A stretch of 35,970 nt of DNA from Mollicutes bacterium (GTDB lineage: Bacteria; Bacillota_I; Bacilli_A; RF39; UBA660), in the NCBI GenBank assembly GCA_012513875.1, contig JAAZBI010000099.1, positions 1-35,970 on the forward strand, given 5' to 3'. The translations under genes were made by a program, and so were the position numbers. Every line of letters begins with the position of its first letter. The first letter of the stretch is position 1. Below are positions 5,524 to 23,423 of this stretch, one piece after another. The notes under the pieces are model-generated. The model was not told where the DNA came from and made no database searches. It saw only the letters and a program-made list of their open reading frames with translations.

Positions 5524-5593
5524 TACTGTTAAATAACCGCCTGTTAAAACAATAACTGTTATATGTTTATCCTCAATAAACACTTGTATTATC

Positions 5594-6205
5594 ATGATAG
5601 GAGAAGTATTAGCCGGATTATCACTAGTATCCTCATTGTTCGGCTCTTTAAAATCTGCTCAGGCCAACAATCGGATGGATAGACAACTGGATAAACGTCA
5701 GTCAGAACTTGATGCCTGGTACAATAAAGAGTACAACATGAACTACCTTGATACCGATGAAGCCAAGAGTGTTACTCAGTTGCTTAACCGCCAAAAAGAT
5801 GAAACCCTTCAGAAGGTTGATCAAAATAGCGCAATCAAAGGGGCTTCAGATGAAGCCAGGGTTGCTACTGCAGATAAAATAAACCGCAGTGTGGGTGATG
5901 AACTTACACGGCTAGCAGGATATGGCACCAGGTATAGAGATTCAGTAAGGAGGGAATACCAGGGATTAAAGAGTAATCTCGATAACCTCGAATCTTATAA
6001 CCTCCAAAACAAAGCTTCTCAATGGTCTAATTTCTCAAATAATGCTGCTAATGCAGGAATGGGATTCGCACAGGCCGCAGGAGAAGGAGCTTTCGAGGGG
6101 TGGGAAAAATGGTTTACTAATTGGCGCAAAGCTAATAAACTGCGTAAAGCTGGAGGAGCTGTTAACCCTGTCTCAACATCTCATCTTAAACAACCGTCCT
6201 TTTAA
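5594..6205 (+). CDS. Hypothetical protein with a hydrophobic N-terminus (first gene of the giant-protein/portal block)
   Basis: 203 aa. The N-terminus is MIGEVLAGLSLVSSLFGSL. It is packed 12 nt from the next gene. Confidence 0.55.
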   Translation: MIGEVLAGLSLVSSLFGSLKSAQANNRMDRQLDKRQSELDAWYNKEYNMNYLDTDEAKSVTQLLNRQKDETLQKVDQNSAIKGASDEARVATADKINRSVGDELTRLAGYGTRYRDSVRREYQGLKSNLDNLESYNLQNKASQWSNFSNNAANAGMGFAQAAGEGAFEGWEKWFTNWRKANKLRKAGGAVNPVSTSHLKQPSF

Positions 6206-6217
6206 AATCAATTAAAT

Positions 6218-7270: not shown

Positions 7271-7280
7271 GTGGTACGAC

Positions 7281-10200
7281 ATGGAAGATAAACTGCAACT
7301 CTTTTATAATTCCCTTTCAGCTAATCCCAACATCAAAGGGATCCCCGATGATTATGACGTTTTCAGATCAACCCTTGCCGATCCGGAAAAGTCAGAGCTG
7401 TTCTATAACTCCCTTTCAGCAAACCCCAAAATAAAAGGCTTACCAGAGGATTATGATGCATTTGTATCAGGGCTGAATCTCAATACAGGAGGAGTAACAC
7501 CCAAAGAGGAACAACAGCAACAAAGACAGGGATACTTCGAAGGTCTTGGCAATAAACTGCAGGCCGGAGCTCTTAGTCTTGGAGAGATAGTAACAGAAAT
7601 ACCACAATTTGCCGAAGGTGTATCGAATCTGCCATATATGATATTCTCTAATATGATGGTCAATAGAGCAGAGAAGAAGGGGGAAATTGACAAAGAGACT
7701 GCCGATGTTCTTAAAAAAGAACAGTTATTACCGAAATCAAGTTTCGCACAGGGATTGCCACGGATGCCCGGCGAACAAACAGTAGGGGAAGCATTAGCGA
7801 ATAGTAAGCTTAATCAATTCTTTGAAGATAAAGCAGAAGAACTCAGCGAGGCAGCAACGAGATATGACAGGACAGCTACCGAATATATTAAAGACAAACA
7901 ATTCGGGAAGGCTTTAGGAGTAGTCTCTTATGGTATAGCTGAATCGTTAGCCCCAACGCTGGCGGCTGCATTTAGCCCTTATGGAGCAGCTTATCTCGGA
8001 CTTGGCGTAGGCGCACAGTCTTACGATGAAGTAAAGGACCGAGAGGATATGTCAGAGATGATGAAACTTGCTGATGCTGTCACTTCTGGAATATTTGAAT
8101 GGGTATTTGAAAGGTTCGGGACCCGGGAGATGGCACAATTCCTTAAAGGATATTATAAACAGGCTGGTAAAAAAGGGATAGAACAGGCCATTAAATCACA
8201 AGGGCTACAGAATCTTTTCGCAAGGGCTTATAAGAAATTTGGGTTATGGTTCGCTCCTTTGCATGAGGGATTGTCAGAGATGCTCACAGAATTTGGCCAG
8301 AATTGGGCAGCAAAGTTCTCAGGGGAAGATCCTAACAGGAAAATAACTGACAATGCTATTGAGAGCTTCCTTGTTGGAACAGGGATGGGTGGTGTATTTA
8401 CATCAACAGCCGCACTTGCAAAGAAATTGAAAGGGCAGGAAGATGAGACAGGCACTCCTGGTGAACCTGTTGATCAGGGACCTCCTGGTATCGGGGAACT
8501 AAAAGTACCCTATACGGAAGAGCAAGCCACCGAAGCAATAAATGAAATCGGGAAAGACCTGAAGTTTGGAGACACACCCCTTGAAGAAGATCCTAATCCT
8601 ATTATATCATTTGCCGAAACTAAACTGGGGCAAAAGGTTATCCTTAAAAAAGAGGGTGGAGTAAATGGGGATACCTTCTTTATTGCTTTTGATCTTGAGA
8701 CAAATGAACCAATCCTTGTCAAGCCCAGGGATATACTCGAACGCAAAGACGTGCCTTATCAGGAATGGGTCAAAAACGAACTCAATAACTATAATATAGT
8801 CAAAACACAAGGGGGCAAAATGGTTGCCCAGGCTGAAGCACCAGTACAGGAAGGGCAGGAAATAACTTTAAAAGATAAGAATTTCTATGTATCAGAGGTC
8901 ACTCCCGAAGGGATAGCTCTTAATGAGATTGATGAGGAGGGGAATGTTACTGGCGCAACCGTACATATAACACCCGATCAGTATGGTCCTGTCTTTGGTA
9001 TAGAGGAACAGCCAGGAGAAGCTCCTACGATAAAAGAGGGGGCTACTGGTCAGCCGGTGACAGAAGATGCTCAAACAGCACCACAAGAGGAACTACAGAT
9101 ACCTCTTAATAAACAAGGAGAGATTGATTATGACAATATTCAGGATCCTCAGACTTATGCTCAAGCCTTAATACAGGAATTCGCAGAAGGAGCCCCTACC
9201 GTACTGGATGAACTTATCACAGAGAAACAAGATGCTCTTGCTAAAGCAGGTAAGGTAAGTAATGCTATTGAGAGAGCCCGGAAGATTAAATCACTTAATT
9301 CGGAGATTAATAAACTCACTGATGTAAGAAATATACTATCTCCTACGGCCACTACTACCACAATCGCAAGTCCTGCCGTGGAACAAGCTGAACCAATAGA
9401 ACAGCCCACAGCGCAGGACATGGCGAGGACGAAAGAAGAACAGCCTGTAGTCGAGCAGACTACAGCCCAAACTCCATCGACCCCGGACGAGACTGTACCT
9501 GTTGAAGCAGAGATGCAGAAAGCCGGGGAGGTGGAGAAAAAGACTTCCGCAGACCTTACAAAGGCCAATGCAGAAATAGATACTAACCCTACAGAGGCTC
9601 AGAAAGAAGCCGGGAATTACAAGAAAGGGCATCTGTCAGTACAAGGGCTTGATATATCTATTGAGAATCCTGCAATGTCCGTAAGATCCGGGACCGATAA
9701 GGCAGGCAAGAAATGGAGTGTAATGCTCAATAATTCCTATGGGTATTTTCGCAGGACCAAAGGGAAGGATGGCGACCAGGTAGATGTATTCCTGGGCGAT
9801 AACCTGGATTCAGATGCAGTATATGTTATTGATCAGGTTAATCCAGAAACCGGGTTATTCGATGAGCATAAGGTTATGATGGGCTTTATCTCCGCTCAGG
9901 ATGCTAAGGATAACTACCTTGCTAACTATGAACCGGGATGGAAGGGCCTTGGCGCTATCTCCAAAATGTCTATTGACCAGTTTAAGGATTGGTTAGGTAG
10001 TGGGACCAGAACAAAGAAACCTGTTGACGGGAACGTGCCGGTTAAGAAAAAGGCAGAACCAAAGACAAAAGCAGAGAAACCATCTAAACCTGTTAAAGAA
10101 GTTACCCTGAAGCCCAGAAAGAAAGGATTCACCTACGGGCCTAATAGCAGAACAGGGAAAGTTCTCTCCAAAACTCCTAACTCATTTCAGGAAGCAGTTC

Positions 10201-13200
10201 TCCAATTCTTTATTGGGGGAGGGAGAATAAAAACACAGGACTTCCTTGATCATACCGGATATAAAAGAGGAAGCCGGGAGTTTAGACAGTATGTCTGGGC
10301 AATTAAAAACGATGGACAAAGGCTTGATACATTCAATGAAGCTCTTGATAATAGCTTTGGGATAGAGGATCAGGGTCCGATGGACATGATTAATGAGGTC
10401 ATTGACATACTTCGGACATATCCTGGAAGAGGACACATGATGACTGCACTTGAAAAGATGCAGGATGTTGAGACTATTCCTGACCACATGCTGCCCCCGG
10501 AAGAAGATCCTTCTCTTGAATATGATGACTTACAAGGAGCCGATGAGGAGACAGAAGAGCTTACGGATGACATAATGGACCATCCGGAAGTAAAAGAAAT
10601 AATTAAAGAATACTCTTTTGATGGTGTTTTAGATGTTAGTAAACTACTGGATAAAATAGACACTGATCCCAATGAATTTACTATCTTTCCATTCGCTCTT
10701 AAGAAGTCCGAATTACTGAAACTTAAAGAAAGACTGCAAGATGAACAAAGAAGAAGAACGCAAGAAAGTCAAACAGGGACTGGTCAACATAATAAAGATC
10801 AGAGCCAGGGCGCAAGGGAAAACACCACTCGAAGTGATCAGGGAAATGCAGTACGAACTGGACCAGTCGAAAAAGGACCAGACGAAAAACCAGAAGTAAC
10901 TCGCAAAAGTTCACAGAAGTCCAAGTCAGAATTTGCAGGAGAAGTACTTGAGAAAAAATCCCCGAAGGGAAAGGCTGAATATGGTTCAAAGAACAAAGTA
11001 TTTACAGCCGATGCAGCTCAGAAAGCCCGGGAATTACTAAAGAAGAAACTCGGGAACCTTAATGTAGGTATAGATCCTGAGGTTATGCAAGCCGGGATAA
11101 CCCTTGCAGGATATCATATCGAGGCCGGGGCACGTAAGTTCGCTGATTATGCAAAGGAAATGATCAATGACATGGGAGAAGCTATTAAACCCTATCTGAA
11201 ATCATTTTATAATGCTGTTCGTGATTGGCCTGGATTCGACACCGAAGGTATGGATGATTATGCAGCAGTATCAACGATAGACGTTAGTAATTTAGTCGCT
11301 GAAAATTTGGATAATACCAAAGAAGTTAGTAACTTACATAAAAACATACAAGATGTACCTAATAGATCAGGAGATAGCCAACCAAATAGCCAGAACAACT
11401 CCGATGAAGTATCCGGAGATGAAGAAACTGTTCCTAATGAAGGAGGCAGCAGCAGACCGGTGGGAGATGAATCTTCGCAACAAAATAGAGAAACAAGAGG
11501 GGGAAGAAGTAGCCAGGGTGGTAGCGGTCTATTTGCCCCTTTATTTGGAGAACCAAGCAATAACAAGGTTTCTCAGGAGGACCAAAGCCCAGAGCTTACG
11601 GATGATGATGCCGGAGATTTTGACGGTAGAGGAAATGATCTATTTGGCCCAGCAGGACATGATAGCTCTGTCTCCAATACAGGAGAAAAGGGTAGCAACA
11701 TTAGCAAGGGAGTATCAACGTCTTTTCAGGAAAGGACAAGGTTAAGAAAGATAGCCCAGCAAAAAGCTGAACCTATTCCTATCAAAATAGCTGACAAAGG
11801 GAATATTGAGGAAACTCTTCCCGTCTTGCTTCCTGAACAACAGGAAGATGTCCTGAAAGCAGAAAACAGATTTTTCAATGAAGCTCACCAGACCCATGAA
11901 CTGGCCTATGGTAAAGGTATGTTATTTACCAATGGTACCGGAACCGGCAAAACATACACAGGATTAGGTATTATCAAACGATTCTTAAAACAAGGGAAGA
12001 GAGATATTCTTATTGTTGTTCCAAGTGAAGCTAAGAAAAAAGACTGGATCGAGGACGGGGAAAATCTATTATTATCAATAACAGAACTTAAAGATACCAA
12101 AGATAAAGGTAATGGTGTCCGGGTCACTACTTATGCAACATTCAGGGCTAATGAGAACTTAAAGAATGTTGATTTTGACCTTGTTGTATATGATGAGTGT
12201 CATAGGCTCATGGAAGATAAAGGGGGTAATCCTTCCGCTACCACTGAAGCACATTACCAAATGTCTAATGTATCTCCAAACAGTGCATTTACCAGAATAA
12301 CAAGTGTCCATCCCTTATGGATAAGACGTTCAGCCCTCAATAGGGAAATACGTATTGAATCCAAGAGCACAAATAACCTTGATCTTATGGACTGGCAGCT
12401 TGCCGAGATTCGTGATAAGATCAAAGCCCTTGAAGAAGAATTGAAGACCGTAGAAGAAGAAATAAGGCAGGTTGAGCCTTCAATCAAAGAAAGAGCTGAG
12501 AAAGCCCATGATAAAACAAAAGTTTTGATGCTTTCTGCTACACCGTTTAAAGGCCATTTTAACCTAAGATATGCTAATAAGGTCCTTTTTGATTGGGGTG
12601 ACGAGACAACGTATGAACAGGCAAGTAGGGGGATGAGCCGTGTGGATCCCGAAGGCCGTTTCTTCCTTGATAACTTTGGGGCTGCCTATGAATGGAAATT
12701 CCATCGCCTGCAGACAAAATCCAATGCTAATGCGGAGGCAATTGCTATGCAAGAGGTAGAGTTTGCTGAAAATCTCATGAAACAGGGGGTCCTTTCTGGA
12801 AGAGCGATTGAGAGTAATATGGATTATTCAAGAGAATTCCCTTTGGTAGCCCTTGATAAAGCAGAAATATTTAACCAGGGATTCACAGACATATTTACTT
12901 ATGGCGAGGCAGCATTATTCCCTAATCTAACAGAACCGGCTTCTGAGGTATTCTTTAACTATAACTATACTACTCAGCTCCTTGAGTCCCTAAGGGCTTC
13001 AATGTCTATCCCAAGGATAGAAAAACACCTTGCTCTTGGAAGGAAGGTAGTTGTTTTCCATCGCAGAAAACAGGCAAATGCTTCTCCTCCATTTGCTAAC
13101 ATTCTCCAGGTAGCACGTAGCAATGCCAATACTGTTCTTAAAAGTGATACAGCAAGGGAGGAAGAAAAAGCAAAGGCAAAGGAAACTCTTGTCCAAGCAG

Positions 13201-16200
13201 ATTTATTTGAGGAAAAATACAGGGAGCTTCTTGAATACGAACAGACCCTTAATTATTCATCAGCTATTGATCAGATCATTCAGAAGTTTGGGGCTGAAAG
13301 GGTAGGGCTTGTTAATGGGGATGTAAGCAAGAAAGACAAAATGAACAATATCCGCAGATTCAATGAGGATGATTCAGGGGTAGATATCATTGTCGTTCAG
13401 GAAGAAGCCGGGAAAGAGGGCATATCCCTTCATGATACAACAGGCAAGCATCCACGGGTTATGATGAGCCTATCACTCCCTATCTCTTCAACTACTGCAC
13501 TACAGATGGAAGGAAGGATATTTAGAATAGGACAGGCCAGTAACGCTATATTTGAAAATCCTATCCTGGGCCTTGATATGGAGATAGCTGATTTTGGCCA
13601 GAAGATAAACCGTAAATTAAGTACTACAGAGAATCTTGCCGTAGGGAACCAGGCAAGGGATCTTATCCGGTCATTTTCAGAAGGAGTATTGTTCAATGCC
13701 AAAAAAGACGATCCCCATATTGACCAAGGGAAGGGAGGTAAGGAATATGATAAGAAAGCTCAACAGCAGTTATCTGAGTTTCGTAGAGCAGTACTTGTTT
13801 ATTCCACTAATCAGAAAAATAGAGGCCGCCGGGATTCGAGAGAAGGGATAGACTACTTTGCCACTCCTGAACCATTGGGGCAGAAAATGGTCGAATGGCT
13901 TGATTTAAAACCTGGGAATTCAGCTATGGAGCCAAGTGCAGGACATGGAGCTATTGCAATGTGGTTCCCTGAGAGCATAAATACAACATCAATAGAACCA
14001 TCCTATTCCTTATATGCCAAGTTGAATGCCAGGGCAGGGGGAGGAAACAGGAAGATAGTACGTTCAAATTTTGAGGACTTCAATATCGTCAATAAGTTTG
14101 ACGGGATTGCTATGAACCCTCCGTTTGGGACCCAGGGAAAGATGGCAATGGATCATATTGAAAAGGCATTCAAACACCTTAGAAACAGAGGCCGGATCGT
14201 TGCTATTATACCCGATAGTCCCTCTATGCAGAAACGGTTTGATAGTTTCATAAATGGAACCAATGAAGATGGAAAACCACTGAATCCCGATGCTCATTTA
14301 GTCGAATCCATTAAGCTGCCAAGAGTAACCTTTGAACAGGCAGGTACTCAGGTAGCAGCCAGGGTAGTTGTTATTGATAAGATCGAGATCAAGACGAAAG
14401 CACAGATACAAAATGAATTAGCTGCAGAGGACTTACAAAGAGTCATAAGCCAGAGAGGGGCCACCCTTCGTCCAAAAGAAATGCTTTCAGCAGAAGCACT
14501 AAGAAGATACGAGGAGCAGTTTGAACAAATGCCCCATACCATTAACAGGGAGTTGCCGGAAGTAAAAACCGTTGATGAGTTTTTTGATAGGATTGAAGAT
14601 ATATCTGTCCCTGCCAGACCTGAAGCCCCTGAATCTGCTAATTCAATATCCACAGATTCCCCGACTGCAACCGAACCAGCACAGGAAGGCGATGTCGCTA
14701 AGTTAATAATTCAGAAACACAGCAAGACCGGGGCAGAACTGCCAACAGTACAATTATTGAATCGTGTCAGTTCAGATGTTTATAATAAATATAAGTCCAT
14801 TGCTAGTTCATTCGGGGGCAGATGGAGCTCTTATAAGCGAGAAGGGATGATTCCTGGATTTATATTTCGAAATGGTGAGGATGCGAAAAATGCATTGACA
14901 CAAATAAATAACACAAAAAATGATGTATCTTCGTTACATGACAAAGCAGAAAAATATATCAAGAAAAACAAGGTCTATTCTCAAGCCAGACCAAAAACAG
15001 ATTTCCCCGAAGAAGTATCATTTGTCTCAGAAGGATCCTTGGGAAATATACCAGGACAGCTTAATTTATTCGGGGAAGAAGTATATTCTCCCACCCCCCC
15101 TGATGATAACGTAACGTATGTAGAAAGGCTGCTCTCAGATAAAGGGCAAATAGAGTTTATTGGTGATAAAATAACCGGGCCATCCGAAATACGCTCATCG
15201 GCAGATATAGCTTTCCTTTTTAAGAATCTTGAATCAGCAGCAAGCGAAAATGTATTTTTTGTATTTATTGATAAAAATAATAAATATAAAGTGTTATACA
15301 TGTCAACAGGGACAACTAATATGGCACCTGTCGATACAAAAATAGTAGTTGCTGCAGCAAAAGAGTTTAAAGCCGAAAGAGCTGTCTTTGTCCATAACCA
15401 CCCATCTGGATCTCTAAAAGCTTCCGATTCTGATATAAAAACATATAGCAGGACACGTGATCTTTTAGAGAAAATAGGAGTAACTCTTGACCCATCAGTA
15501 ATAATCAATCTTGACAGTGGGGAATATGCTGTTTTTGATACTAGTAGCTTTTCTGTTGTACCAAGTGACAAGATGTATTATGACCTATATGAAACGGTGA
15601 CTCCTCAGTCGATCTATCAATTTGATAGGCAGAAATTATATGCCCCCTTGTCTGATCATCACGCAATACGGGAATCTTCAGATGTAGCAGAGTATTTAAG
15701 CAGAATGAAACGAGGGACAACCCCAAAAATACATGCCATAATTCTTGATCGTAACCTAAAGATCACTCGTTATGCATTGTACGATGAAACCATTACAAGG
15801 GAGAAACTGATAGAAGAGTTATTGTATGAGGTAGGTAAGCATGGGGAAAACATAATACTGGCATCAAATAGTGATCCTGCCCCGGAACTATTAAGCTCCA
15901 TTTCAAATGCCATGAAACTAGCAAATGGGCAATTATTAGACTATGTTGTTATTAAGCAATCAGATGATATTACAAGGAATTATAATAGTTATGCTGACCT
16001 TGGCTATCTATCAGAACCAGATATTGAATACGGAGAAGGTCCCGATGCTAAGTTTCGGATCTCCGATGACCTGTACTTCTCTCCCGTTGAAAGAGCCCTG
16101 GATGCAATAAAACAGGACAAAGCAACTGTTGAGCAGTTCAAGGCCATGTTGTTAAAGAACGGAGCAAAACAGGCTGAACTTGATTGGATGGGATGGGATG

Positions 16201-19200
16201 AGTTTGCTAATGACAAGCGTGTCATCACCAAAGCAAAAATCCAAGACTGGATTGACCAAAATAAAATCAGGGTTGAGGAAGTACAGAAAGGCGGTTTCCA
16301 ATGGAAAGGAAATGATTTAATAGTCGGGGGAAAAGTCGTTGCTAATCTTATTCACAACGAAGATGGAACATGGTCTTATCAAAGTGATTTTTCAGAGGGT
16401 GAAGAAGCATGGGAAACCAAATTGGATGCACAGAAAGAAGCTGAAGAAGCAATTATTGGTGATGCTTATTCCCCAAATGCTACCAAATACTCCCAGTACA
16501 CCCTCCCCGGAGGCGAAAACTACAAGGAGTTGTTGCTGACGATGCCTGACTTACAAAGAAAAAACAGGCTTGATTACAATAGAAGATTTGGCGAGCTTGA
16601 AAAAGAAGTATTACAAAGACTTGGCGATAACATTAAATATCCGGCAGCATTTAATTTATATGATGCAAAACATAATGGATTATTAACCCCGGACGAATTA
16701 TCTCGCTTAAATAGTATTGACCAACAGGCAAATAAAAAACTGCCTGAAAACTTTAAATCCTCCCACTTTGAAGAACCCAACATACTTGCACACGTAAGAT
16801 TCAATACCCGAAGAACCCAAGACGGGAAGAATATCCTTTTTATCGAAGAGATCCAGAGTGATTGGGCGCAGGAAGGGAAAAAGAAAGGATATAAGTCAGA
16901 TAAAGATAAACTTTTCAAAGACTTAGCTGCAAAAGGAATATTCCAGGATAGAAAATCAACGATTGAAACATCATTTATTGATAAAGAAGGGAATCAGATA
17001 TATCATCCAAATAGCAACGTACCACAGAAAGCATCACCTGAACAGGATGCTGCAATAGATGAATTCTATAAAGAATATCAGAATATAAGCAATGCTTCTA
17101 TCCCCGACATGCCCTACAAGAAAACCGATCAATGGGTTGGCCTGGCACTCCGGAGGATGGTCCGCTATGCCATTGATAACGGCTTTGATGCTATTGCATG
17201 GACTCCGGGAGAGGTACAGAATGAGAGGTATGATCTGAGTAAACAGGTGGATAAGATTACTTATAATATCAACGAAAAAACAAGGAAGACCGAGTACCCC
17301 TTCAAAATGAGGGTGTGGCCAAAAAATGGAGGATCCCCGATTGTAAGAGAGATAAATAATGTAAATGAACTTGAAGATTTTGTAGGTAAAGAAATTGCCG
17401 AAAAAATTGACAGTTCCGGGGGAGAATACGAAGGAGGCAATAGGGAATATAAAATACTGTCTAACCTTGATCTTAAAGTCGGGGGCTCCGGCATGACAGG
17501 TTTCTATGACAATATCCTTCCGTCTATTGCCAATAAGTTGGGTAAGAAGTTTGGGAGCCATGTTGAAGAAACAAAGGTTGTAAATAAACGATTCAATATA
17601 AGGCTTAAAAACAACGGATTTTATGAAATAAATGATATTGATGGCCACATGGTCATAAACAATGTTGATCCGGAGAAAATTGATCAATGGAAGGAGTCAT
17701 CATATACAGTTCACTCTCTTCCTATAACCGATGCAATGTTCGATTCCTACCGGCAGGGGATCCCGTTATTCAGAAGGAATCAATACCAGGGACAGTCCTT
17801 GCTTTTTGATGTCGTTGGCATCAATACAAGCCAAAATCTGGAAAAGGAAATCCGGGATAAAGTAAAAGACCTTGAAGAAAGCCTACATACGAAGATTACT
17901 ATAATTCAAAACAGGGGACAATTACCCGAGAGGATCCAAAGGCAGGCTATCAGGCAAGGTATTGCCACTAACAAACGGATTACAGGAGTATATGACCCTC
18001 AGACAGAATCAGTATATGTTCTCCTGGATGATGTTAAGGCAGTCGGTATCATTAAAGGGATAGAAGAAGTAATTAAAACAGTCCTTCATGAAGTAGTCGC
18101 ACATAAAGGATTGCCTTCATTATTAGGGCAAGACGAATATAACCGGTTACTGGATTCTGTCTATTGGGATATGCCACAGATTGACCGGAGTTTCCTGATG
18201 GAGCAGTATAATACTACAGATCCTCATACAATAGCAGATGAATACCTTGCTATGATGGCTGAACAGAACGTCAGCCCCACCCTATTCCAGAGGATTCTTG
18301 CCAAAATACGTCAACTGCTTAGGAAACTATTTAAGATCAATTACTCCGAGAACGATATTCATGATATGCTTCGCAGGAGCCGTGAAAATCTTCATAAGCC
18401 ACAAGCAAATAATTATACAAATGCTGAGGAATATCTTGAAGCTATTGATACCTATGAAAAAGCAAGGTTCAGGGTTGCCAAAGCATATAGTAAAAATATT
18501 GTTGATAAAGCAGCCGAGGCATATAAAGAAAAAGAGGTCAAAAGGAGTATCAAAGAGACCAAACAGGGGATAAGGGAATATATTCAGGATCTTAACCTGC
18601 CGGTCCGTAAATTTGAAGAAGAGGTATTAAAACGTGGGGGCAAGCAGGATGATCAGTCAAAACCTTATAGGGATACCAGTCTGTCTTTTGGCCGTCAGGA
18701 GAAGTTATACAATGATTTCTTTGACCAGAAGATGAAGCCTGTACTGAATACGGTTGCAAAGATGAAAAAAACCGGGATCCCGGGAGAAAATATCTTGCCA
18801 TATATTATCGCTAAACATGCTATTGAACGTAACAGGGTATTCCGCACAAAAGAGAGAGACGAGTATATAGCAAGTAACCCCGAAGCAACACCTTCTGAGA
18901 TAAAAGAGATTGAAGAAGTACTAAAGGATAAAGATTATTCGGGGGTTATGCCATTCGACAAAGAAGGAGAATATACCAATCCTGACGAACTTGCCCAGGA
19001 TATTGTAAATGAATTTGAAACACAACTCAATAATAAAGGTCTCATTGATGAATTATGGGAGAACCTCAGAACTGCCAATACTTCTATACTGGATACATGG
19101 GTAAAAGGTGATCAGATATCAGAGGAGCAAAGAGAAGAGTATCTGAATAACTTTAAATACTTTGTTCCCCTTCGTGGATGGAGACAAGGAGCAGCAAAAG

Positions 19201-21419
19201 AATTAATATATACTAAAGGGCAAGGGTTCTCCCGTTCGCTTCGTCATGCAGAAGGAAGGAAAACACTTGCAGACAATCCTCTTGCATATATCCTCTCGGT
19301 CCAATTTCAGGCAATATCCGAACAGGTGACAAATGAGGTCAATAATTCTATGCTGAATCTTATCATCAAAAATCTTGGCAATAATGAGATCCATGAGTTG
19401 GCCACACTGAAAAAACTGTATTACCTGAAAGTAAATCTCCCTGATGGATCGTATGAATGGGAACCAACACTAACCAGGCCCACAGCAGAACAATTCGCCA
19501 GTGGAGAAGCAAGAACGAAAATATTCCGTGAACATGAAAAATTAAGAGCCCCTTCGCAGGCCCGGGAGCATGAGGTTATTGTCCGTAAGCCCGGAGGAGA
19601 TATGGTGATGATCTTTAAAGGACAAAACTTGCCCGTTGCACAAAGTCTTAACAAGCAAAATTACTTATACCGATCCATATTTGGGAACGTACATGATGCA
19701 AGGGATATCAATAAGGCTATGACCCTGCTCGGAGATATAAATAATATTCTTAAAGCAGCTTATACTTCATGGAACGTGGTGTTCCCCTTTACTAACTTCA
19801 TGCGAGATTTCCAGGAAGCATCAATAACACAAGCAATAAAACAGGGATCCGGCCTTAAAGTGATTCGCAATTACAAACATGCATTCCCGGCAATCATAAG
19901 GCATCTTACAGGCAAGGCAGATCTAAATAATAGGATTGACAAAGAGCTGGAAGAATTCTATCAGTATGGAGGAGCAACCGGATATACACACCTGAAAACA
20001 CCGGAAGAGATAGAAAAAGACATAAAGAAGGAAATTAAACGTATGGTCAGGGCTGGTTCCCTAAGAGGAGATATGGCCAATACAGCCGTTAAGTTCCTGG
20101 GAGGCGTTGAAGCATGGAATATGATCTTTGAGGATGCAACACGGTTCTCCGTTTACTTGGCTTCTATAGCAAGTGGTAACACAAAAAAAGATGCTGCCTA
20201 TGATGCGAAAGAAGCTTCTGTTAACTTCAACCGGAAAGGAAAAGGGAGTAAGGCCTGGGATGCATATTTCGCATTCTTTAATGTAGCAATACAGAGTATG
20301 CAGAAAAACTTCGCACTGGCTAAAGATCATACCGGTAAGTTCGCTGCCGTTGCTGGTTCATTTATTGCCGTAGGATTCCTTGAAGCCATGATGAATGCCC
20401 TCTTTGATGATGACGATGACACATCTTATTACAACATCAATCCATATATGAGGCAAAACTACCTTGTGATTCCGAATATTATCTCATTACTCAGGGGCGG
20501 GACAAAAGGGGACAAATACCTAAGCATACCGCTTCCACAGTTCTGGAGAGGATTCAAGAGTATGGGGGCGATAGGTTTTGATATTGCTGTTAAAAAAGCA
20601 ACCGTCAAAGATGGTATAATGCAAGCCCTGGGGAATTTTGGAGCTTCCCTTCTCCCTGTTGATATAGGGGGATTCTGGGCTTCAGGTGAATTCAGCTTTG
20701 CCCCTATCATGCCAACGGTTATTAAACCAGTTGTAGAAGTACTTGAAAACACCAACTATATGGGCTATGCAATCAAGAATGAACCTTTCACAAGAGATCA
20801 GGAGGCCATCCTTGCTAATGCCGGTCTAGGGAAAAAGAATGTCAGTCCGGCAGCTAAATTCATAACCGATATGCTCTTTAGATGGGGAGGGGGAGATAGT
20901 AAGTATAAATACTACTATGATAGCAATAAGGGGATATCAAAGAAGGTGCCGGGCATACTTGATATAAACCCGTCCACGATAGAACATTTATTCAAGGGAT
21001 ATACCGGAGGCACAGGAGGGGTTTTCTCTGATATGATAACCACCATATCCCAGGCTCTTGACGTGGAACAAGAGATTGATTATAGGAATATGCCATTCGT
21101 AAATAGGTTTATAAGGAAGGTCCCTGAGTCCAAATGGGATATTATTTCAAAATATTACAACCTAAGGGATGATTACAAGGTGATTAATGCTTTAAGCTCG
21201 AATTATTTCAAGGAAGGGCAGTATGAGAAAGCTCTTGAGATAGCCGGAGACGAGTATATGGCAAAATATGTTGCAATATTCAAACACTACGAATCAGCAC
21301 TAAATGATGCAAAGAAAGCCGTTGACTTTGATGATGTGGAAGGGAATTATGTAGGGATAGAGTTAATGCGCCAATGTGTCAATGACATAAATGATCTTAA
21401 AGAAGAATATGGGAGGTAA
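7281..21419 (+). CDS. Giant polyvalent protein (4,712 aa): a multi-domain helicase/methyltransferase/RadC/zincin fusion, likely virion-associated
   Basis: A single uninterrupted 14,139-nt ORF, flanked 10 nt and 6 nt from its neighbours. The domain motifs are listed as separate features below. Confidence 0.85.
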   Translation: MEDKLQLFYNSLSANPNIKGIPDDYDVFRSTLADPEKSELFYNSLSANPKIKGLPEDYDAFVSGLNLNTGGVTPKEEQQQQRQGYFEGLGNKLQAGALSLGEIVTEIPQFAEGVSNLPYMIFSNMMVNRAEKKGEIDKETADVLKKEQLLPKSSFAQGLPRMPGEQTVGEALANSKLNQFFEDKAEELSEAATRYDRTATEYIKDKQFGKALGVVSYGIAESLAPTLAAAFSPYGAAYLGLGVGAQSYDEVKDREDMSEMMKLADAVTSGIFEWVFERFGTREMAQFLKGYYKQAGKKGIEQAIKSQGLQNLFARAYKKFGLWFAPLHEGLSEMLTEFGQNWAAKFSGEDPNRKITDNAIESFLVGTGMGGVFTSTAALAKKLKGQEDETGTPGEPVDQGPPGIGELKVPYTEEQATEAINEIGKDLKFGDTPLEEDPNPIISFAETKLGQKVILKKEGGVNGDTFFIAFDLETNEPILVKPRDILERKDVPYQEWVKNELNNYNIVKTQGGKMVAQAEAPVQEGQEITLKDKNFYVSEVTPEGIALNEIDEEGNVTGATVHITPDQYGPVFGIEEQPGEAPTIKEGATGQPVTEDAQTAPQEELQIPLNKQGEIDYDNIQDPQTYAQALIQEFAEGAPTVLDELITEKQDALAKAGKVSNAIERARKIKSLNSEINKLTDVRNILSPTATTTTIASPAVEQAEPIEQPTAQDMARTKEEQPVVEQTTAQTPSTPDETVPVEAEMQKAGEVEKKTSADLTKANAEIDTNPTEAQKEAGNYKKGHLSVQGLDISIENPAMSVRSGTDKAGKKWSVMLNNSYGYFRRTKGKDGDQVDVFLGDNLDSDAVYVIDQVNPETGLFDEHKVMMGFISAQDAKDNYLANYEPGWKGLGAISKMSIDQFKDWLGSGTRTKKPVDGNVPVKKKAEPKTKAEKPSKPVKEVTLKPRKKGFTYGPNSRTGKVLSKTPNSFQEAVLQFFIGGGRIKTQDFLDHTGYKRGSREFRQYVWAIKNDGQRLDTFNEALDNSFGIEDQGPMDMINEVIDILRTYPGRGHMMTALEKMQDVETIPDHMLPPEEDPSLEYDDLQGADEETEELTDDIMDHPEVKEIIKEYSFDGVLDVSKLLDKIDTDPNEFTIFPFALKKSELLKLKERLQDEQRRRTQESQTGTGQHNKDQSQGARENTTRSDQGNAVRTGPVEKGPDEKPEVTRKSSQKSKSEFAGEVLEKKSPKGKAEYGSKNKVFTADAAQKARELLKKKLGNLNVGIDPEVMQAGITLAGYHIEAGARKFADYAKEMINDMGEAIKPYLKSFYNAVRDWPGFDTEGMDDYAAVSTIDVSNLVAENLDNTKEVSNLHKNIQDVPNRSGDSQPNSQNNSDEVSGDEETVPNEGGSSRPVGDESSQQNRETRGGRSSQGGSGLFAPLFGEPSNNKVSQEDQSPELTDDDAGDFDGRGNDLFGPAGHDSSVSNTGEKGSNISKGVSTSFQERTRLRKIAQQKAEPIPIKIADKGNIEETLPVLLPEQQEDVLKAENRFFNEAHQTHELAYGKGMLFTNGTGTGKTYTGLGIIKRFLKQGKRDILIVVPSEAKKKDWIEDGENLLLSITELKDTKDKGNGVRVTTYATFRANENLKNVDFDLVVYDECHRLMEDKGGNPSATTEAHYQMSNVSPNSAFTRITSVHPLWIRRSALNREIRIESKSTNNLDLMDWQLAEIRDKIKALEEELKTVEEEIRQVEPSIKERAEKAHDKTKVLMLSATPFKGHFNLRYANKVLFDWGDETTYEQASRGMSRVDPEGRFFLDNFGAAYEWKFHRLQTKSNANAEAIAMQEVEFAENLMKQGVLSGRAIESNMDYSREFPLVALDKAEIFNQGFTDIFTYGEAALFPNLTEPASEVFFNYNYTTQLLESLRASMSIPRIEKHLALGRKVVVFHRRKQANASPPFANILQVARSNANTVLKSDTAREEEKAKAKETLVQADLFEEKYRELLEYEQTLNYSSAIDQIIQKFGAERVGLVNGDVSKKDKMNNIRRFNEDDSGVDIIVVQEEAGKEGISLHDTTGKHPRVMMSLSLPISSTTALQMEGRIFRIGQASNAIFENPILGLDMEIADFGQKINRKLSTTENLAVGNQARDLIRSFSEGVLFNAKKDDPHIDQGKGGKEYDKKAQQQLSEFRRAVLVYSTNQKNRGRRDSREGIDYFATPEPLGQKMVEWLDLKPGNSAMEPSAGHGAIAMWFPESINTTSIEPSYSLYAKLNARAGGGNRKIVRSNFEDFNIVNKFDGIAMNPPFGTQGKMAMDHIEKAFKHLRNRGRIVAIIPDSPSMQKRFDSFINGTNEDGKPLNPDAHLVESIKLPRVTFEQAGTQVAARVVVIDKIEIKTKAQIQNELAAEDLQRVISQRGATLRPKEMLSAEALRRYEEQFEQMPHTINRELPEVKTVDEFFDRIEDISVPARPEAPESANSISTDSPTATEPAQEGDVAKLIIQKHSKTGAELPTVQLLNRVSSDVYNKYKSIASSFGGRWSSYKREGMIPGFIFRNGEDAKNALTQINNTKNDVSSLHDKAEKYIKKNKVYSQARPKTDFPEEVSFVSEGSLGNIPGQLNLFGEEVYSPTPPDDNVTYVERLLSDKGQIEFIGDKITGPSEIRSSADIAFLFKNLESAASENVFFVFIDKNNKYKVLYMSTGTTNMAPVDTKIVVAAAKEFKAERAVFVHNHPSGSLKASDSDIKTYSRTRDLLEKIGVTLDPSVIINLDSGEYAVFDTSSFSVVPSDKMYYDLYETVTPQSIYQFDRQKLYAPLSDHHAIRESSDVAEYLSRMKRGTTPKIHAIILDRNLKITRYALYDETITREKLIEELLYEVGKHGENIILASNSDPAPELLSSISNAMKLANGQLLDYVVIKQSDDITRNYNSYADLGYLSEPDIEYGEGPDAKFRISDDLYFSPVERALDAIKQDKATVEQFKAMLLKNGAKQAELDWMGWDEFANDKRVITKAKIQDWIDQNKIRVEEVQKGGFQWKGNDLIVGGKVVANLIHNEDGTWSYQSDFSEGEEAWETKLDAQKEAEEAIIGDAYSPNATKYSQYTLPGGENYKELLLTMPDLQRKNRLDYNRRFGELEKEVLQRLGDNIKYPAAFNLYDAKHNGLLTPDELSRLNSIDQQANKKLPENFKSSHFEEPNILAHVRFNTRRTQDGKNILFIEEIQSDWAQEGKKKGYKSDKDKLFKDLAAKGIFQDRKSTIETSFIDKEGNQIYHPNSNVPQKASPEQDAAIDEFYKEYQNISNASIPDMPYKKTDQWVGLALRRMVRYAIDNGFDAIAWTPGEVQNERYDLSKQVDKITYNINEKTRKTEYPFKMRVWPKNGGSPIVREINNVNELEDFVGKEIAEKIDSSGGEYEGGNREYKILSNLDLKVGGSGMTGFYDNILPSIANKLGKKFGSHVEETKVVNKRFNIRLKNNGFYEINDIDGHMVINNVDPEKIDQWKESSYTVHSLPITDAMFDSYRQGIPLFRRNQYQGQSLLFDVVGINTSQNLEKEIRDKVKDLEESLHTKITIIQNRGQLPERIQRQAIRQGIATNKRITGVYDPQTESVYVLLDDVKAVGIIKGIEEVIKTVLHEVVAHKGLPSLLGQDEYNRLLDSVYWDMPQIDRSFLMEQYNTTDPHTIADEYLAMMAEQNVSPTLFQRILAKIRQLLRKLFKINYSENDIHDMLRRSRENLHKPQANNYTNAEEYLEAIDTYEKARFRVAKAYSKNIVDKAAEAYKEKEVKRSIKETKQGIREYIQDLNLPVRKFEEEVLKRGGKQDDQSKPYRDTSLSFGRQEKLYNDFFDQKMKPVLNTVAKMKKTGIPGENILPYIIAKHAIERNRVFRTKERDEYIASNPEATPSEIKEIEEVLKDKDYSGVMPFDKEGEYTNPDELAQDIVNEFETQLNNKGLIDELWENLRTANTSILDTWVKGDQISEEQREEYLNNFKYFVPLRGWRQGAAKELIYTKGQGFSRSLRHAEGRKTLADNPLAYILSVQFQAISEQVTNEVNNSMLNLIIKNLGNNEIHELATLKKLYYLKVNLPDGSYEWEPTLTRPTAEQFASGEARTKIFREHEKLRAPSQAREHEVIVRKPGGDMVMIFKGQNLPVAQSLNKQNYLYRSIFGNVHDARDINKAMTLLGDINNILKAAYTSWNVVFPFTNFMRDFQEASITQAIKQGSGLKVIRNYKHAFPAIIRHLTGKADLNNRIDKELEEFYQYGGATGYTHLKTPEEIEKDIKKEIKRMVRAGSLRGDMANTAVKFLGGVEAWNMIFEDATRFSVYLASIASGNTKKDAAYDAKEASVNFNRKGKGSKAWDAYFAFFNVAIQSMQKNFALAKDHTGKFAAVAGSFIAVGFLEAMMNALFDDDDDTSYYNINPYMRQNYLVIPNIISLLRGGTKGDKYLSIPLPQFWRGFKSMGAIGFDIAVKKATVKDGIMQALGNFGASLLPVDIGGFWASGEFSFAPIMPTVIKPVVEVLENTNYMGYAIKNEPFTRDQEAILANAGLGKKNVSPAAKFITDMLFRWGGGDSKYKYYYDSNKGISKKVPGILDINPSTIEHLFKGYTGGTGGVFSDMITTISQALDVEQEIDYRNMPFVNRFIRKVPESKWDIISKYYNLRDDYKVINALSSNYFKEGQYEKALEIAGDEYMAKYVAIFKHYESALNDAKKAVDFDDVEGNYVGIELMRQCVNDINDLKEEYGR
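7299..7463 (+). repeat. Internal duplication in the giant ORF (two 22-aa units with a 33-aa period)
   Basis: aa 7-28 read LFYNSLSANPNIKGIPDDYDVF and aa 40-61 read LFYNSLSANPKIKGLPEDYDAF (18/22 identical). The DNA copies differ at many synonymous sites. Confidence 0.9.
9585..9998 (+). other. Giant ORF domain: inorganic-pyrophosphatase-like module
   Basis: AGNYKKGH is followed by GLDISIENPAMSVRSG, YGYFRRTKGKDGDQVDVFLG and VMMGF. DGDQVDV resembles the PPase signature D-x-D-x-x-D-V. This pattern recurs in phage and ICE giant proteins (recalled from memory). Confidence 0.45.
11808..13690 (+). other. Giant ORF domain: SNF2/DEAD-like superfamily-2 helicase
   Basis: The motifs are Walker A NGTGTGKT (11931-11954), DECH box (12192-12203), LMLSATPF, and motif VI QMEGRIFRIGQ (13503-13535). 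Confidence 0.8.
13848..14390 (+). other. Giant ORF domain: N6-adenine DNA methyltransferase (gamma-like motif order)
   Basis: AdoMet motif I EPSAGHGAI starts at 13929. The catalytic motif IV NPPF is at 14115-14126. Confidence 0.8.
15189..15539 (+). other. Giant ORF domain: RadC-like JAB metallo-domain (apparently active)
   Basis: The sequence reads ...SENVFFVFIDKNNKYKVLYMSTGT...AVFVHNHPSGSLKASDSD. HNHPSG is at 15393-15410. Confidence 0.8.
15666..15965 (+). other. Giant ORF domain: degenerate second RadC-like copy that lacks the metal site
   Basis: The layout is the same (IRESSDVAEYL..., HAIILDRNLKITRY..., ...LLDYVVI). ASNSDP at 15861-15878 replaces HNHPSG. Confidence 0.5.
16030..17760 (+). 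other. Giant ORF: large conserved-looking module of unknown function
   Basis: The motifs are HFEEPNILAHVRF, IEEIQSDWAQEG (from 16842), DQWVGLALRRMVRYAIDNGFDAIAWTPG and GGSGMTGFYDNILPSIANKLGKKFG. I cannot assign a family. Confidence 0.3.
17979..18280 (+). other. Giant ORF domain: zincin-like metallopeptidase motif (polyvalent-protein type)
   Basis: TVLHEVVAHKGLP has H-E-x-x-x-H at 18087-18104, preceded by a beta-rich segment ITGVYDPQTESVYVLLDD. The spacing is HExxxH, not the classical HExxH. Confidence 0.45.
18500..21419 (+). other. Giant ORF: C-terminal ~970-aa module with hydrophobic segments
   Basis: The motifs are YFVPLRGW, WNVVFPFTNFMRDFQE and EDATRFSVYLASIASG...EASVNFNRKGKG (from 20130). 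Hydrophobic stretches include FAAVAGSFIAVGFLEAMMNALF. It resembles C-terminal modules of phage polyvalent proteins (recalled from memory). Confidence 0.4.
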
Positions 21420-21425
21420 AAGAAT

Positions 21426-23423
21426 ATGAAAATCATCACAGCTAAAGAGGAGCTAAAAGGATTTACTAACAGTACCCTCGGCATGAGGAAACAGAAGGTT
21501 GTCCCCTTAATAGATGTTTCTGAGATATCTGATGAGGTAAATGCTAATATGCAGCTTCTTGAAGATTGCCGCAGGTATTGGGATAGTCTAAGGGATTTCC
21601 GTAACCGGAGGCTTCGTAACAGAAAATATTACCGAGGGGATCAATGGAGTGACCAAATAGAAGACCCAGACAACGAAGGAGAATATATAACAGAGGAGAC
21701 ATACCTTAAAGAACAAGGGAAGGTTCCATTAAAGCAGAACCAGATTCGTCAGCTCGTAAAAAACCTTATTGGGCAATACAGGAGTAATCCATCGAAAAGT
21801 ATTGTCATTGCCCGGGCCCGGGAAGATGCTCAAGCTACTGAGATGCTTACTAATGCCTTACAAGCTGCATCGTATGTTAATATTTTACCTGAACTGGATG
21901 CAAGGGTATTTGAGGAATTCAACCTTTCAGGCGCTATTATTCAAAAGATAGGATATAAATACTTTAAAGAGCGGAATCTGGAGGACCTTTATGTTGAAAA
22001 TACAAATCCTAACAGGATATTCTTTAATTCGGATCTGTCAGATATAAGGCTTAATGACCTCCGGTTGATAGGGGAGATTATTGACACTACAGTTGATAAC
22101 ATTGTAAGCTCATTCGCCAAACACAAAGGAGACGAAGAAAAGATAAGGCAGTTATATGCAGGGCTGGTAGATAGAACATATCTCTCAGACCATGGCCTTG
22201 ATCCCACCAGACTTGATAACATGGATTTTTATAATCCAAGAGATTCTAACAAGGCAAGACTGTTTGAAATATGGACACTAAAGGGGGAATGGAGGGTGTA
22301 TGCTCATGATCCAATGGATGGGACATATAATATTGTCGATTATACTCTTAAAGAGATCGCAGCCCAAAACAAGGAAAGAATAGCCATAGGGGAAGAACAA
22401 GGCATACCACAGGAAGAGATACCGCTTATTGAGGCAGAGGAGAAGTTTGAACAGTTCTGGTATGTTAAATTTCTTACTCCCTTCGGCCATTGTCTCTATG
22501 AAGGGGAAACACCTTATAAGCATGAAGAGCATCCTTATGCAATAACCCTTTACCCTCTTCTTGATGGTGAAGTATGGGGATTCGTTGAGGACATAATTGA
22601 CCAACAAAGATATATTAACAGGCTTATTATCCAAATGGACTTTATTATGAGTGCATCAGCAAAAGGAGTACTCTTAATCCCTGAGGATGTTATCCCTGAT
22701 GGGATGACCCCTGATGATTTTGCAAAAGAATGGACCCGTTTTAACGGAATAATAACATATACACCTAAGCCACATGGGAAGATGCCAGAACAAATTAGCG
22801 CAAATTCCACGGGGATAGGGCTAAATGAGATGATAGCTCTTCAGATGAATCTATTACAAAATATTTCCGGGATCCATGATGCTATACAGGGGAAATCACC
22901 AAGCTCAGGAACCCCCTCTTCTTTATATGCGCAAGAAGCTCAATATGCATCGCTTAATACTCTTGACTATATGAGTACGTTCCGTTATTATAAACAGAAA
23001 AGGGATTTAAAAGCTCTCAAAGTAATTGTCCAGTATTATAACGACAAAAGGTACTTATCTGTTAACGGTAGAAGTATAAACGAGGATTCTAAAATATACG
23101 ACCCTGATATTGTTCGGGATCTTGACTTTGATGTAGTTGTTTCACAGGGGATGGATACTCCTGTATATAGACAATTGATTGATGAAACATTAATGAAGCT
23201 TCTTGAAGGACAAATGATTGATATTGAGATGTTCTTAGAACACACTTCATTGCCATTTGCTGACAAACTACTCTCGGCAATAAGACAAAGGAAAGAGGCT
23301 ATGATGCAAGAAGGAGGAATGCCAGGTATTCCGGAAGATTTGCTGGCTCAGATTAATCAGGGCACAAACCCGCAAGCAATGGAAATGGCAAAACAGGCTA
23401 TAGGAATGAAGTCTGCAGCATAA
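21426..23423 (+). CDS. Portal protein
   Basis: 665 aa, the expected size and position in a head module. It has an N-terminal ...RRYWDSLRDFRNRRLRNRKYYRGDQW... segment and an acidic, Q/M-rich C-terminal tail typical of portals. The call rests on pattern recognition only. Confidence 0.7.
   Translation: MKIITAKEELKGFTNSTLGMRKQKVVPLIDVSEISDEVNANMQLLEDCRRYWDSLRDFRNRRLRNRKYYRGDQWSDQIEDPDNEGEYITEETYLKEQGKVPLKQNQIRQLVKNLIGQYRSNPSKSIVIARAREDAQATEMLTNALQAASYVNILPELDARVFEEFNLSGAIIQKIGYKYFKERNLEDLYVENTNPNRIFFNSDLSDIRLNDLRLIGEIIDTTVDNIVSSFAKHKGDEEKIRQLYAGLVDRTYLSDHGLDPTRLDNMDFYNPRDSNKARLFEIWTLKGEWRVYAHDPMDGTYNIVDYTLKEIAAQNKERIAIGEEQGIPQEEIPLIEAEEKFEQFWYVKFLTPFGHCLYEGETPYKHEEHPYAITLYPLLDGEVWGFVEDIIDQQRYINRLIIQMDFIMSASAKGVLLIPEDVIPDGMTPDDFAKEWTRFNGIITYTPKPHGKMPEQISANSTGIGLNEMIALQMNLLQNISGIHDAIQGKSPSSGTPSSLYAQEAQYASLNTLDYMSTFRYYKQKRDLKALKVIVQYYNDKRYLSVNGRSINEDSKIYDPDIVRDLDFDVVVSQGMDTPVYRQLIDETLMKLLEGQMIDIEMFLEHTSLPFADKLLSAIRQRKEAMMQEGGMPGIPEDLLAQINQGTNPQAMEMAKQAIGMKSAA

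Follow-up and report, generated by a model that had tools for sequence, protein, structure and literature searches.

What is a single phage gene of more than 14 kbp for, when it stands directly in front of a portal gene? The question is raised by the stretch of DNA analysed here, contig JAAZBI010000099.1, which is from an uncultured Bacteroidales phage and whose whole length of 35,970 bases is referred to below as the window. By far the longest open reading frame (ORF) of the window begins with ATG, runs from 7281 to 21419 on the plus strand (14,139 nt, 39% of the window) and encodes 4,712 amino acids (aa), with a computed mass of 530 kDa and a computed pI of 5.4. We consider it probable that this giant protein is a phage-type polyvalent protein organized as a chassis and a cargo, which is packaged and ejected by the mechanism proposed below. 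As delimited by comparison with related sequences, the chassis consists of the first ~700 aa, the InPase domain and the last ~1,200 aa, where an HExxxH module is followed by a helical LPD38 module that contains a hydrophobic helix, and the cargo is the exchangeable middle, namely an SNF2 translocase-methyltransferase, a tandem of an active and an inactive RadC/JAB domain, and a large domain that we call module E.

Class and domain composition

The whole giant protein was searched against Pfam with curated cut-offs. The assignment to the phage-type polyvalent proteins is right because two domains, InPase and LPD38, score far above these cut-offs, and both are listed as phage-type-only domains, probably packaged, in the survey that described the class (Iyer et al. 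2017, PMC5512222). An earlier note on this DNA, made from the sequence alone, had named the class correctly; LPD38 was overlooked there and was found by Pfam, whereas the pyrophosphatase-like module that it described is borne out as InPase. The parts of the giant protein are as follows.

7281..21419, plus strand: whole giant ORF, 4,712 aa, phage-type polyvalent protein
7281..9428, plus strand (aa 1-716): N-terminal (N) module, recognized by homology to relatives, no family match
9594..9995, plus strand (aa 772-905): InPase domain (Pfam PF18823, E 3.9e-56, 189 bits, cut-off 26.8)
10983..11312, plus strand (aa 1235-1344): conserved helical patch, common to the giant proteins of phages BS-TP4 (gp3) and BKO1-TP3 (gp55) and to the homologue P0081
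11841..13580, plus strand (aa 1521-2100): SNF2-type helicase/translocase of superfamily 2 (SF2), with motifs GTGKT, DECH and QMEGRIFRIGQ and Pfam matches
13848..14420, plus strand (aa 2190-2380): N6-adenine DNA methyltransferase domain (PHROG profiles, motifs I and IV)
15123..15584, plus strand (aa 2615-2768): RadC/JAB domain (Pfam RadC, JAMM signature intact)
15585..16046, plus strand (aa 2769-2922): putative degenerate RadC-like companion (hhalign against the first RadC half; catalytic residues lost)
16041..17774, plus strand (aa 2921-3498): module E, a domain of ~570 aa (homologue alignment)
17817..18428, plus strand (aa 3513-3716): module F, with the HExxxH motif (HEVVAH, aa 3603-3608) and a downstream (D/E)EYLAxxAE helix
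18429..21416, plus strand (aa 3717-4712): mostly alpha-helical C-terminal module (Pfam LPD38, homology to phage phi24B, AlphaFold2 model)
20340-20423, plus strand (aa 4354-4381): hydrophobic helix and acidic run (…FLEAMMNALFDDDDD), directly N-terminal of LPD38
20421-21101, plus strand (aa 4381-4607): LPD38 domain (PF18857, E 4.2e-21, 76 bits, cut-off 27)

Like the phage-type polyvalent proteins of the 2017 survey, the giant protein joins unrelated effector domains in one polypeptide, has InPase, LPD38, an SNF2 ATPase-adenine methylase pair, RadC and the HEXXXH motif of a putative peptidase variant, and is encoded in a genome with portal-terminase packaging. Unlike that set, about half of its length (the N module, aa 927-1500, module E and the helical stretch N-terminal of LPD38) lies outside the Pfam models derived from the survey. 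Five tiles of the unassigned regions gave only noise against Pfam at E<=5; the giant protein matches only RadC and, weakly, helicases in NCBIfam; and a sequence search of the whole protein against the PDB found only the C-terminus of the Pa193 portal protein and RadC. None of 50,697 phage records matched the gene by megablast. The linkers that the earlier note described between the modules correspond to five hydrophobic-poor stretches, at approximately aa 575-615, 696-787, 1139-1240, 1344-1474 and 2444-2487. All six motifs that it quoted are present in the translation, starting at aa 1554 (GTGKT), 1638 (DECH), 2075 (QMEGRIFRIGQ), 2279 (NPPF), 2705 (HNHPSG) and 3603 (HEVVAH).

Relatives share the ends and exchange the middle

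Homologues were sought with three segments of the giant protein of ~1,100-1,500 aa each, and the module boundaries were then mapped by local BLAST. Among cultured phages, the nearest relatives are three temperate Bacteroides phages, BS-TP4, BKO1-TP3 and BF1-TP2, with portal proteins 37-38% identical to that of the window. BS-TP4 gp3 (5,391 aa) and BKO1-TP3 gp55 (5,553 aa) are encoded by ORFs directly upstream of the portal gene, and in both phages, as in the window, the giant ORF is followed by the portal, terminase and capsid genes in that order. Their homology to the giant protein is restricted to InPase (49% identity), the patch at aa 1235-1344 (45%) and the C-terminal ~1,100 aa (25%). The middle of BS-TP4 gp3 differs, in that it contains a DdrB-type ParB domain and a Strawberry-notch-type helicase, and neither the RadC unit nor module E is detectable there by BLAST. 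BKO1-TP3 gp55 is annotated as 'DarB-like antirestriction', and the paper on these phages leaves the giant gene undiscussed (PMC12694917).

The same division is seen in uncultured relatives. The shortest form is a 2,644-aa ORF (contig L009, IMGVR_UViG_3300014204_000467, positions 6365-14296) that lies in front of the portal gene and is composed of the N module, InPase, the C-terminal half of module E, the HExxxH module and the LPD38 module; its modules are 57-88% identical to those of the window protein, and the helicase, methyltransferase and RadC are lacking. In contig L010, the RadC tandem, module E, the HExxxH module and the LPD38 module belong to one ORF of at least 5,129 aa, and again the portal gene comes next; L012 has modules in a different order. 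In the homologue P0035 the methyltransferase region is joined straight to module E, the RadC unit being missing. In contig L003 (JGI 3300000032, positions 654-13504) four consecutive genes precede the portal gene, and encode, respectively, the N module with a helix-turn-helix and a TnsA-like endonuclease; InPase with DarA_C; LPD5, LPD1 and LPD23; and the HExxxH module with LPD38. Two genes are found in L004, where they are parted within module E by an ORF for a NUMOD3 homing endonuclease. Altogether, relatives carry the system as ORFs of 2,644–5,900 aa or as two to four genes, and it adjoins the portal gene in every case checked, among relatives whose portal proteins are just 37-85% identical.

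The earlier note had thought the size and kind of the protein unusual and perhaps undescribed, which does not hold. Besides the two Bacteroides phage proteins, the ORFs on IMG/VR contigs range from 3,876 aa to no fewer than 5,895 aa, proteins that share module E reach 7,483 aa, and the 2017 survey cites a polyvalent protein of 12,242 aa (PMC5512222).

One uninterrupted gene

Since close relatives have separate genes (four in L003, two in L004) and the DNA of the window is of uncultured source, the single ORF might be an artefact of assembly or sequencing, a chimera, or a false fusion of adjacent genes. We regard this as very unlikely. The translation has no internal stop over 14,139 nt, and a run of 4,712 stop-free codons at ~42% G+C makes a chance origin of the ORF impossible; moreover, the G+C content and both strand skews are even along 7281..21419. 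Most of the module junctions are crossed colinearly by independent sequences, which argues against an assembly chimera: P0075 covers aa 61-1225, phrog_10691 aa 1203-2380, P0035 aa 1895-2542 and then module E, P0020 aa 2820-4705 and P0012 aa 2921-4649, and L010 joins the RadC tandem, module E, module F and the C-terminal module. The sole junction that no independent sequence bridges is that between the methyltransferase and RadC (~aa 2542-2600). The sequenced isolates BS-TP4 and BKO1-TP3, moreover, have unbroken ORFs of even greater length. The single 14.1-kb ORF reported in the earlier note is confirmed both by the ORF list and by the stop-free translation.

The chassis modules

The N module has homologues in P0073 (58% identity, aa 1-716), P0074 and P0076 (45%, aa 78-625), P0075 (34%, aa 61-1225) and L009 (57%), and relatives place it, always, at the N-terminus of the first protein. 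Two tandem repeats of ~33 aa (FYNSLxANPxIKGxPxDYDxF) are recognized at aa 5-69 (7293-7487 of the window) and also in P0073 and P0082, and both BKO1-TP3 gp55 and BS-TP4 gp3 start with comparable aromatic/acidic tandem repeats. These repeats might be a signal for capsid targeting or scaffold binding.

InPase is an inorganic-pyrophosphatase-like OB fold of the polyvalent type. The region at aa 621-915, which includes it, matches the C-terminus of the portal protein of phage Pa193 (PDB 9B41). Residues 529-765 of that portal protein have no density in the structure, and the InPase-like domain forms a disordered, capsid-facing C-terminus there. Between InPase and the helicase, the patch at aa 1235-1344 was considered as a DarA_C domain, since L003 and L004 have DarA_C after InPase; neither those DarA_C regions nor P1 DarA reached a probability of 1% in hhalign, and the idea was rejected.

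The HEVVAH motif near the C-terminal end had been called zincin-like in the earlier note. It reads HExxxH, which differs from the canonical HExxH of zincins, and it is invariant in 13 homologues together with a conserved downstream Glu helix, (D/E)EYLAxxAE. The AlphaFold model of the module shows a beta-hairpin, the HExxxH helix and more helices, in an order of secondary structures compatible with a zincin, and Iyer et al. (2017, PMC5512222) describe polyvalent-protein peptidases of one clade whose active site is HEXXXH. The motif stands, but searches for the zincin fold gave no significant match: the module has no Pfam MPTase match and no Foldseek match to zincins, its hhalign alignment with an ArdC-type peptidase is not significant (E 0.03) although the HE residues are superposed, and hhalign with P1 DdrB gave no significant alignment. 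That the HExxxH module is a putative zincin-like processing peptidase is plausible but unproven.

The C-terminal LPD38 region matches 335 phage records. In the AlphaFold2 model of the C-terminal 1,173 aa, which has a predicted local distance difference test (pLDDT) score of 62.6 and a predicted template modelling (pTM) score of 0.49, the chain is almost wholly helical. The hydrophobic helix and acidic run before LPD38 are kept in all 13 aligned homologues, distant ones included.

The cargo modules

Profile searches upheld the three enzymatic calls of the earlier note, namely the SF2 helicase, the NPPF adenine methyltransferase and the RadC/JAB domain. The helicase is confirmed by both Pfam and motifs. 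ResIII scores 47.5 bits, above its cut-off; matches to ResIII, DEAD and AAA_34 cover aa 1521-1667, and those to Helicase_C and Helicase_C_4 cover aa 1990-2098. Motifs I, II and VI and two RecA-like lobes, as in SWI2/SNF2 ATPases, are all present, and there is a weak match to SsoRad54 (1z63, E 0.0014). The methyltransferase is recognized by the profiles phrog_15406 (6.4e-32) and phrog_6263 (4.6e-18) and by its motifs, motif I (EPSAGHG) sitting ~50 residues N-terminal of motif IV (NPPF); Pfam MTS stayed below its cut-off (20.7 vs 23 bits). A cassette with the same order, helicase and then methyltransferase, is found in Ruegeria phage 45A6 and in gp28 of Pseudomonas phage Skulduggery, with 34-37% identity over 91-95% of aa 1439-2400. 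Skulduggery gp28 has 3,695 aa and is encoded at the end of a block of virion genes; the hosts and lineages of these two phages differ from those of the window phage, and the comparison covers the cassette only. The tblastn matches of the helicase-methyltransferase region include no separately listed or counted P1 record.

The RadC domain is matched by Pfam RadC at aa 2639-2744 (E 4.9e-16, 59 bits, cut-off 22.1), by NCBIfam RadC (8.1e-14) and by PDB 2qlc, and its JAMM signature HxHx7Sx2D is complete (H2705-N-H-PSGSLKA-S-DS-D2718). The segment behind it, aa 2769-2922, had been described as a degenerate copy of RadC, and this is moderately supported: hhalign of the two halves gives E 2.7e-5 and a probability of 75% over 114 colinear columns, but the second half has no Pfam match, BLASTP between the halves is weak, and the metal-binding and HNHPSG residues are absent from it. 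The active RadC domain and its companion form a fixed unit of ~310 aa across 29 homologues. RadC is summarized in the 2017 survey as restricted to conjugative elements, yet prophages are named in its RadC section, an internal inconsistency (PMC5512222). We have dropped the presence of RadC in a phage-type polyvalent protein as a novelty, given this mention of prophages and the RadC domains carried also by L004, L010, L012 and P0022.

Module E

Although module E lacks a Pfam model, it is very common. A profile search of 1.84 billion representative proteins (clustered at 50% identity) found it in 15,118 clusters at E<=1e-3, of which 9,926 remained at E<=1e-30; at the tblastn level it is found in two of the 50,697 phage records. 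It often follows directly after an ADP-ribosyltransferase domain (ART-PolyVal), and it exists also as stand-alone proteins of 620-890 aa. Sixteen sequences, 29-44% identical to the giant protein, share ~30 invariant polar or glycine positions, which argues for selection on activity. These include the stretches LPGGENYRE, H..N..H.R.N.R, EE.QSDW.Q.G, RYDLSKQ and GGEGMK.FYD.

Pfam gave zero matches to module E, even with homologues made of little else, and its profile gave zero matches to PDB sequences even at E<=10. The AlphaFold2 model (pLDDT 70.4) was compared with the PDB by Foldseek; the best E was 0.25, with scattered GNAT-like matches that we do not trust. Matches to BFVD folds are solely to uncharacterized or polyvalent proteins of uncultured phages.

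In L004 (Logan SRR28382702_512; portal protein 65% identical), a 235-aa ORF for the NUMOD3 homing endonuclease, at 9293-10000, lies between the halves of module E. The split products have at least 3,623 aa and 1,456 aa, and the split corresponds to aa 3220/3255 of the window protein (approximately nt 16940-17045), in a loop of module E that is disordered in the AlphaFold2 model. Neither an intron nor an intein accounts for this arrangement: the ORF of the endonuclease occupies the entire gap, reaches into the stop region upstream and ends with a stop codon of its own, leaving no space for intron RNA and no in-frame fusion. The architecture of L009 suggests that module E may really be two domains, of which the C-terminal half would be part of the chassis.

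Probable packaging and ejection

The giant protein is probably borne in the virion and injected with the DNA, to judge from its homologues. The closest physical evidence concerns phage phi24B, whose giant protein gp47 (2,811 aa) was detected in abundance when purified virions were analysed by mass spectrometry but is absent from the map obtained by cryo-electron microscopy; the authors of this 2026 preprint propose it as an encapsidated ejection protein. We take the annotated protein vb_24B_48 (2,807 aa) to be gp47, on the basis of its size and of the match in the LPD38 region. Residues 1914-2698 of vb_24B_48 align with aa 3768-4610 (843 aa) of the giant protein, with 23.6% identity and E 8e-42. 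Both are encoded by giant ORFs of short-tailed temperate phages and share the C-terminal ~850 aa including LPD38, whereas the phi24B protein is 40% shorter, has LPD5, LPD1 and a peptidase in place of InPase, the helicase-methyltransferase, RadC and module E, and is encoded at the far end of the late region, away from the portal gene. Orthologues of the phi24B protein, of ~2,800 aa, are found in Stx-converting phages. In phage PTXU04, knock-down of the LPD38 protein (PTXU04_00025) impairs infection, which fits an essential delivery role of the chassis better than a purely accessory one.

Known ejection proteins of short-tailed phages are internal to the capsid and exit by way of the tail. Like the giant protein, T7 gp14/gp15/gp16, P22 gp7/gp16/gp20 and the virion RNA polymerase (vRNAP) of N4 are encoded near the portal gene, and they are largely helical; the N4 vRNAP, a packaged precedent of ~3,500 aa, is ranked among the polyvalent proteins (Iyer et al., PMC5512222). 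The solved ejection proteins have no sequence or fold match to the giant protein, and the sole link to them is a sub-threshold T7_gp14 match on the 203-aa ORF that lies upstream of it. By our own estimate, one 530-kDa chain occupies ~640 nm3, about as much room as 300-600 bp of DNA take up in the capsid, so that a handful of copies would be physically feasible.

DarB of phage P1 (2,255 aa) is packaged in the capsid and is a functional model for protection in cis of injected DNA, in the case of P1 against type I restriction. The earlier note had invoked it as a precedent, and as an analogy this stands: here, too, a methyltransferase and an SF2 helicase are fused in one large protein. Orthology is rejected, however, since in a search of five sequences the methyltransferase match was marginal (24% identity, E 1e-3), the helicase match was not significant (E 0.4), and the domain order is reversed, being methyltransferase then helicase in DarB and helicase then methyltransferase here. 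No similarity to the P1 Dar partners DarA, DdrA, DdrB and Ulx was found within the giant protein, and none of the Dar accessory proteins DarA, Hdf, DdrA and DdrB was detected. In the P1 genome (NC_005856, L007:10469-19021), darB is divergent from the directly adjacent portal gene prt, so that the classical example, too, links a portal gene with a giant anti-restriction protein that is packaged.

On these grounds we propose the following course of events. The giant gene would be expressed late, together with the portal gene, as the gene order and the gaps of 6-10 nt suggest, and a few copies of the protein would be built into the interior of the procapsid, on the precedent of the homologous phi24B protein, which mass spectrometry found in virions. 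The chain may then be ejected in extended form, ahead of or with the DNA, since its disordered linkers and helical C-terminal module would let it pass along the tail like a thread; a conduit across the envelope could be formed in part by the C-terminal module and the hydrophobic helix. The HExxxH peptidase may cut the chain at its linkers, as in the scheme of Iyer et al., and the released enzymes would act during the initial minutes of infection. On the model of P1 DarB, the translocase-methyltransferase might move along the entering DNA and methylate it at adenine, or shield it, against restriction. InPase might remove pyrophosphate or nucleotide signals.

Alternative explanations

Several points weigh against this proposal. 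The packaging of this particular protein is argued via homologues, and its anti-restriction role by analogy with P1 DarB, to which the similarity is marginal and the domain order reversed. The packaging of a 530-kDa chain, and its passage through a podovirus tail, are a physical puzzle. The zincin call rests on the motif, the order of secondary structures and the literature description, with no significant match by Foldseek or hhalign. The C-terminal model, of modest confidence, found helical membrane proteins as its best Foldseek matches in the PDB (best E 0.43, not significant), and no solved ejection protein was matched. The T7_gp14 match of the upstream 203-aa ORF is below the Pfam cut-off (21.8 vs 27 bits, E 1.9e-4), with no PHROG match, and there is no long morphogenesis operon around the giant gene, since DNA-metabolism genes follow on the other strand after the portal gene.

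Some of these points would suit a quite different function, in which the giant protein is never packaged and is instead a cytoplasmic multi-enzyme protein, late or early, that modifies host targets and replicating or progeny phage DNA in the infected cell, its position beside the portal gene being incidental. The genes after the portal gene are indeed of DNA metabolism, and the two free-standing DNA methyltransferases and the pyrophosphatase-like protein of the window must act inside the cell. However, the homologous phi24B protein is physically in virions, InPase and LPD38 occur in virion-associated contexts, including the portal fusion of Pa193, and adjacency to the portal gene is conserved even though the portal proteins have diverged widely. 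We therefore think a purely cytoplasmic role improbable. An essentially structural role, as an ejection or DNA-conduit protein whose enzyme-like modules have decayed or are secondary passengers that contribute little to counter-defence, is likewise unlikely in our view. It would agree with a chassis that is conserved and a cargo that varies freely, with the 2,644-aa relative that has no helicase, methyltransferase or RadC, with the need for an LPD38 protein for efficient infection by PTXU04, and with one RadC copy that is already degenerate. Yet the catalytic motifs are intact in the helicase (GTGKT, DECH and QxxGRxxRxGQ), the methyltransferase (I and IV), RadC (HxHx7Sx2D) and InPase, and the invariant polar and glycine positions of module E persist over 16 sequences of no more than 44% identity to the giant protein. 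The packaged and ejected polyvalent protein, with a chassis and an active cargo, remains the reading that we prefer.

Gene neighbourhood

The neighbouring genes are as follows.

5594..6205, plus strand: 203-aa ORF upstream of the giant ORF, with an N-terminal hydrophobic helix and the weak T7_gp14 match
6218..7270, plus strand: 350-aa ORF upstream, highly charged, no family match, stopping 10 nt before the giant ORF
21426..23423, plus strand: P22-like portal gene (P22_portal E 2.2e-42; phrog_156 1e-69)
29129..31129, minus strand: large terminase subunit (phrog_2 8.7e-20; 40% identity to the homologues of BS-TP4 and BKO1-TP3)
32503..33870, plus strand: major capsid protein of the SU10 type (Pfam SU10_MCP E 9.4e-29)

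The giant gene thus lies between two small ORFs and the portal gene, as the earlier note had stated, with the portal gene starting 6 nt past its stop codon. The 203-aa ORF is a candidate small ejection protein. Along the window, a plus-strand block (the 203-aa and 350-aa ORFs, the giant gene and the portal gene) is followed by a minus-strand block (SSB, NinB-like, DNA methyltransferase and large terminase) and then by a plus-strand block with the SU10-type capsid gene. Of the 'morphogenesis operon' envisaged in the earlier note, the adjacent portal gene and the nearby terminase and capsid genes are real, but the block itself is short, and minus-strand genes of DNA metabolism come directly after the portal gene.

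Free-standing genes encode two DNA methyltransferases (848-1630, plus strand, and 27693-28454, minus strand), a small pyrophosphatase-like protein (phrog_9236; 1707-2120, plus strand) and a DUF3560 protein (122-775, plus strand), so that some functions are duplicated between the giant protein and separate genes. An 869-aa ORF at 2367-4976 on the minus strand, opposed to the flanking plus-strand genes, has a single match, to phrog_32516 (unknown function, 2.8e-57). A 170-aa ORF at 4982-5494 on the plus strand is rich in Cys, Phe and Ser, has no family match, overlaps a minus-strand ORF at 4957-5451 and is probably not a real gene. A scan of the window for transfer RNA genes found none.

Implications

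The giant protein is a further well-preserved example of a described class, and our main finding is in this sense confirmatory. What is new is the un-modelled module E and the explicit organization into a chassis and a cargo. The organization follows a modular logic, in which the ends are fixed and tied to the portal gene, the middle is freely exchanged, and the system has repeatedly been fused and split; it fits the requirement of an LPD38 protein for efficient infection beside a cargo that looks dispensable. Module E marks a gap in the domain databases, being very common and having no Pfam model, PDB sequence or fold match.

A more far-reaching version, to which we give tentative and less than even credence, is that the N- and C-terminal modules are an essential, portal-linked ejection chassis, a platform for protein injection that takes arbitrary effector cassettes, and that module E is perhaps an undescribed enzyme family of phage-host conflict. 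How a short-tailed phage of ~60 kb packages and ejects a 530-kDa chain is a physical problem that can be tested. In the biology of gut phages, proteins of this kind probably do much to determine host range in the face of the many restriction and defence systems that Bacteroidales possess.

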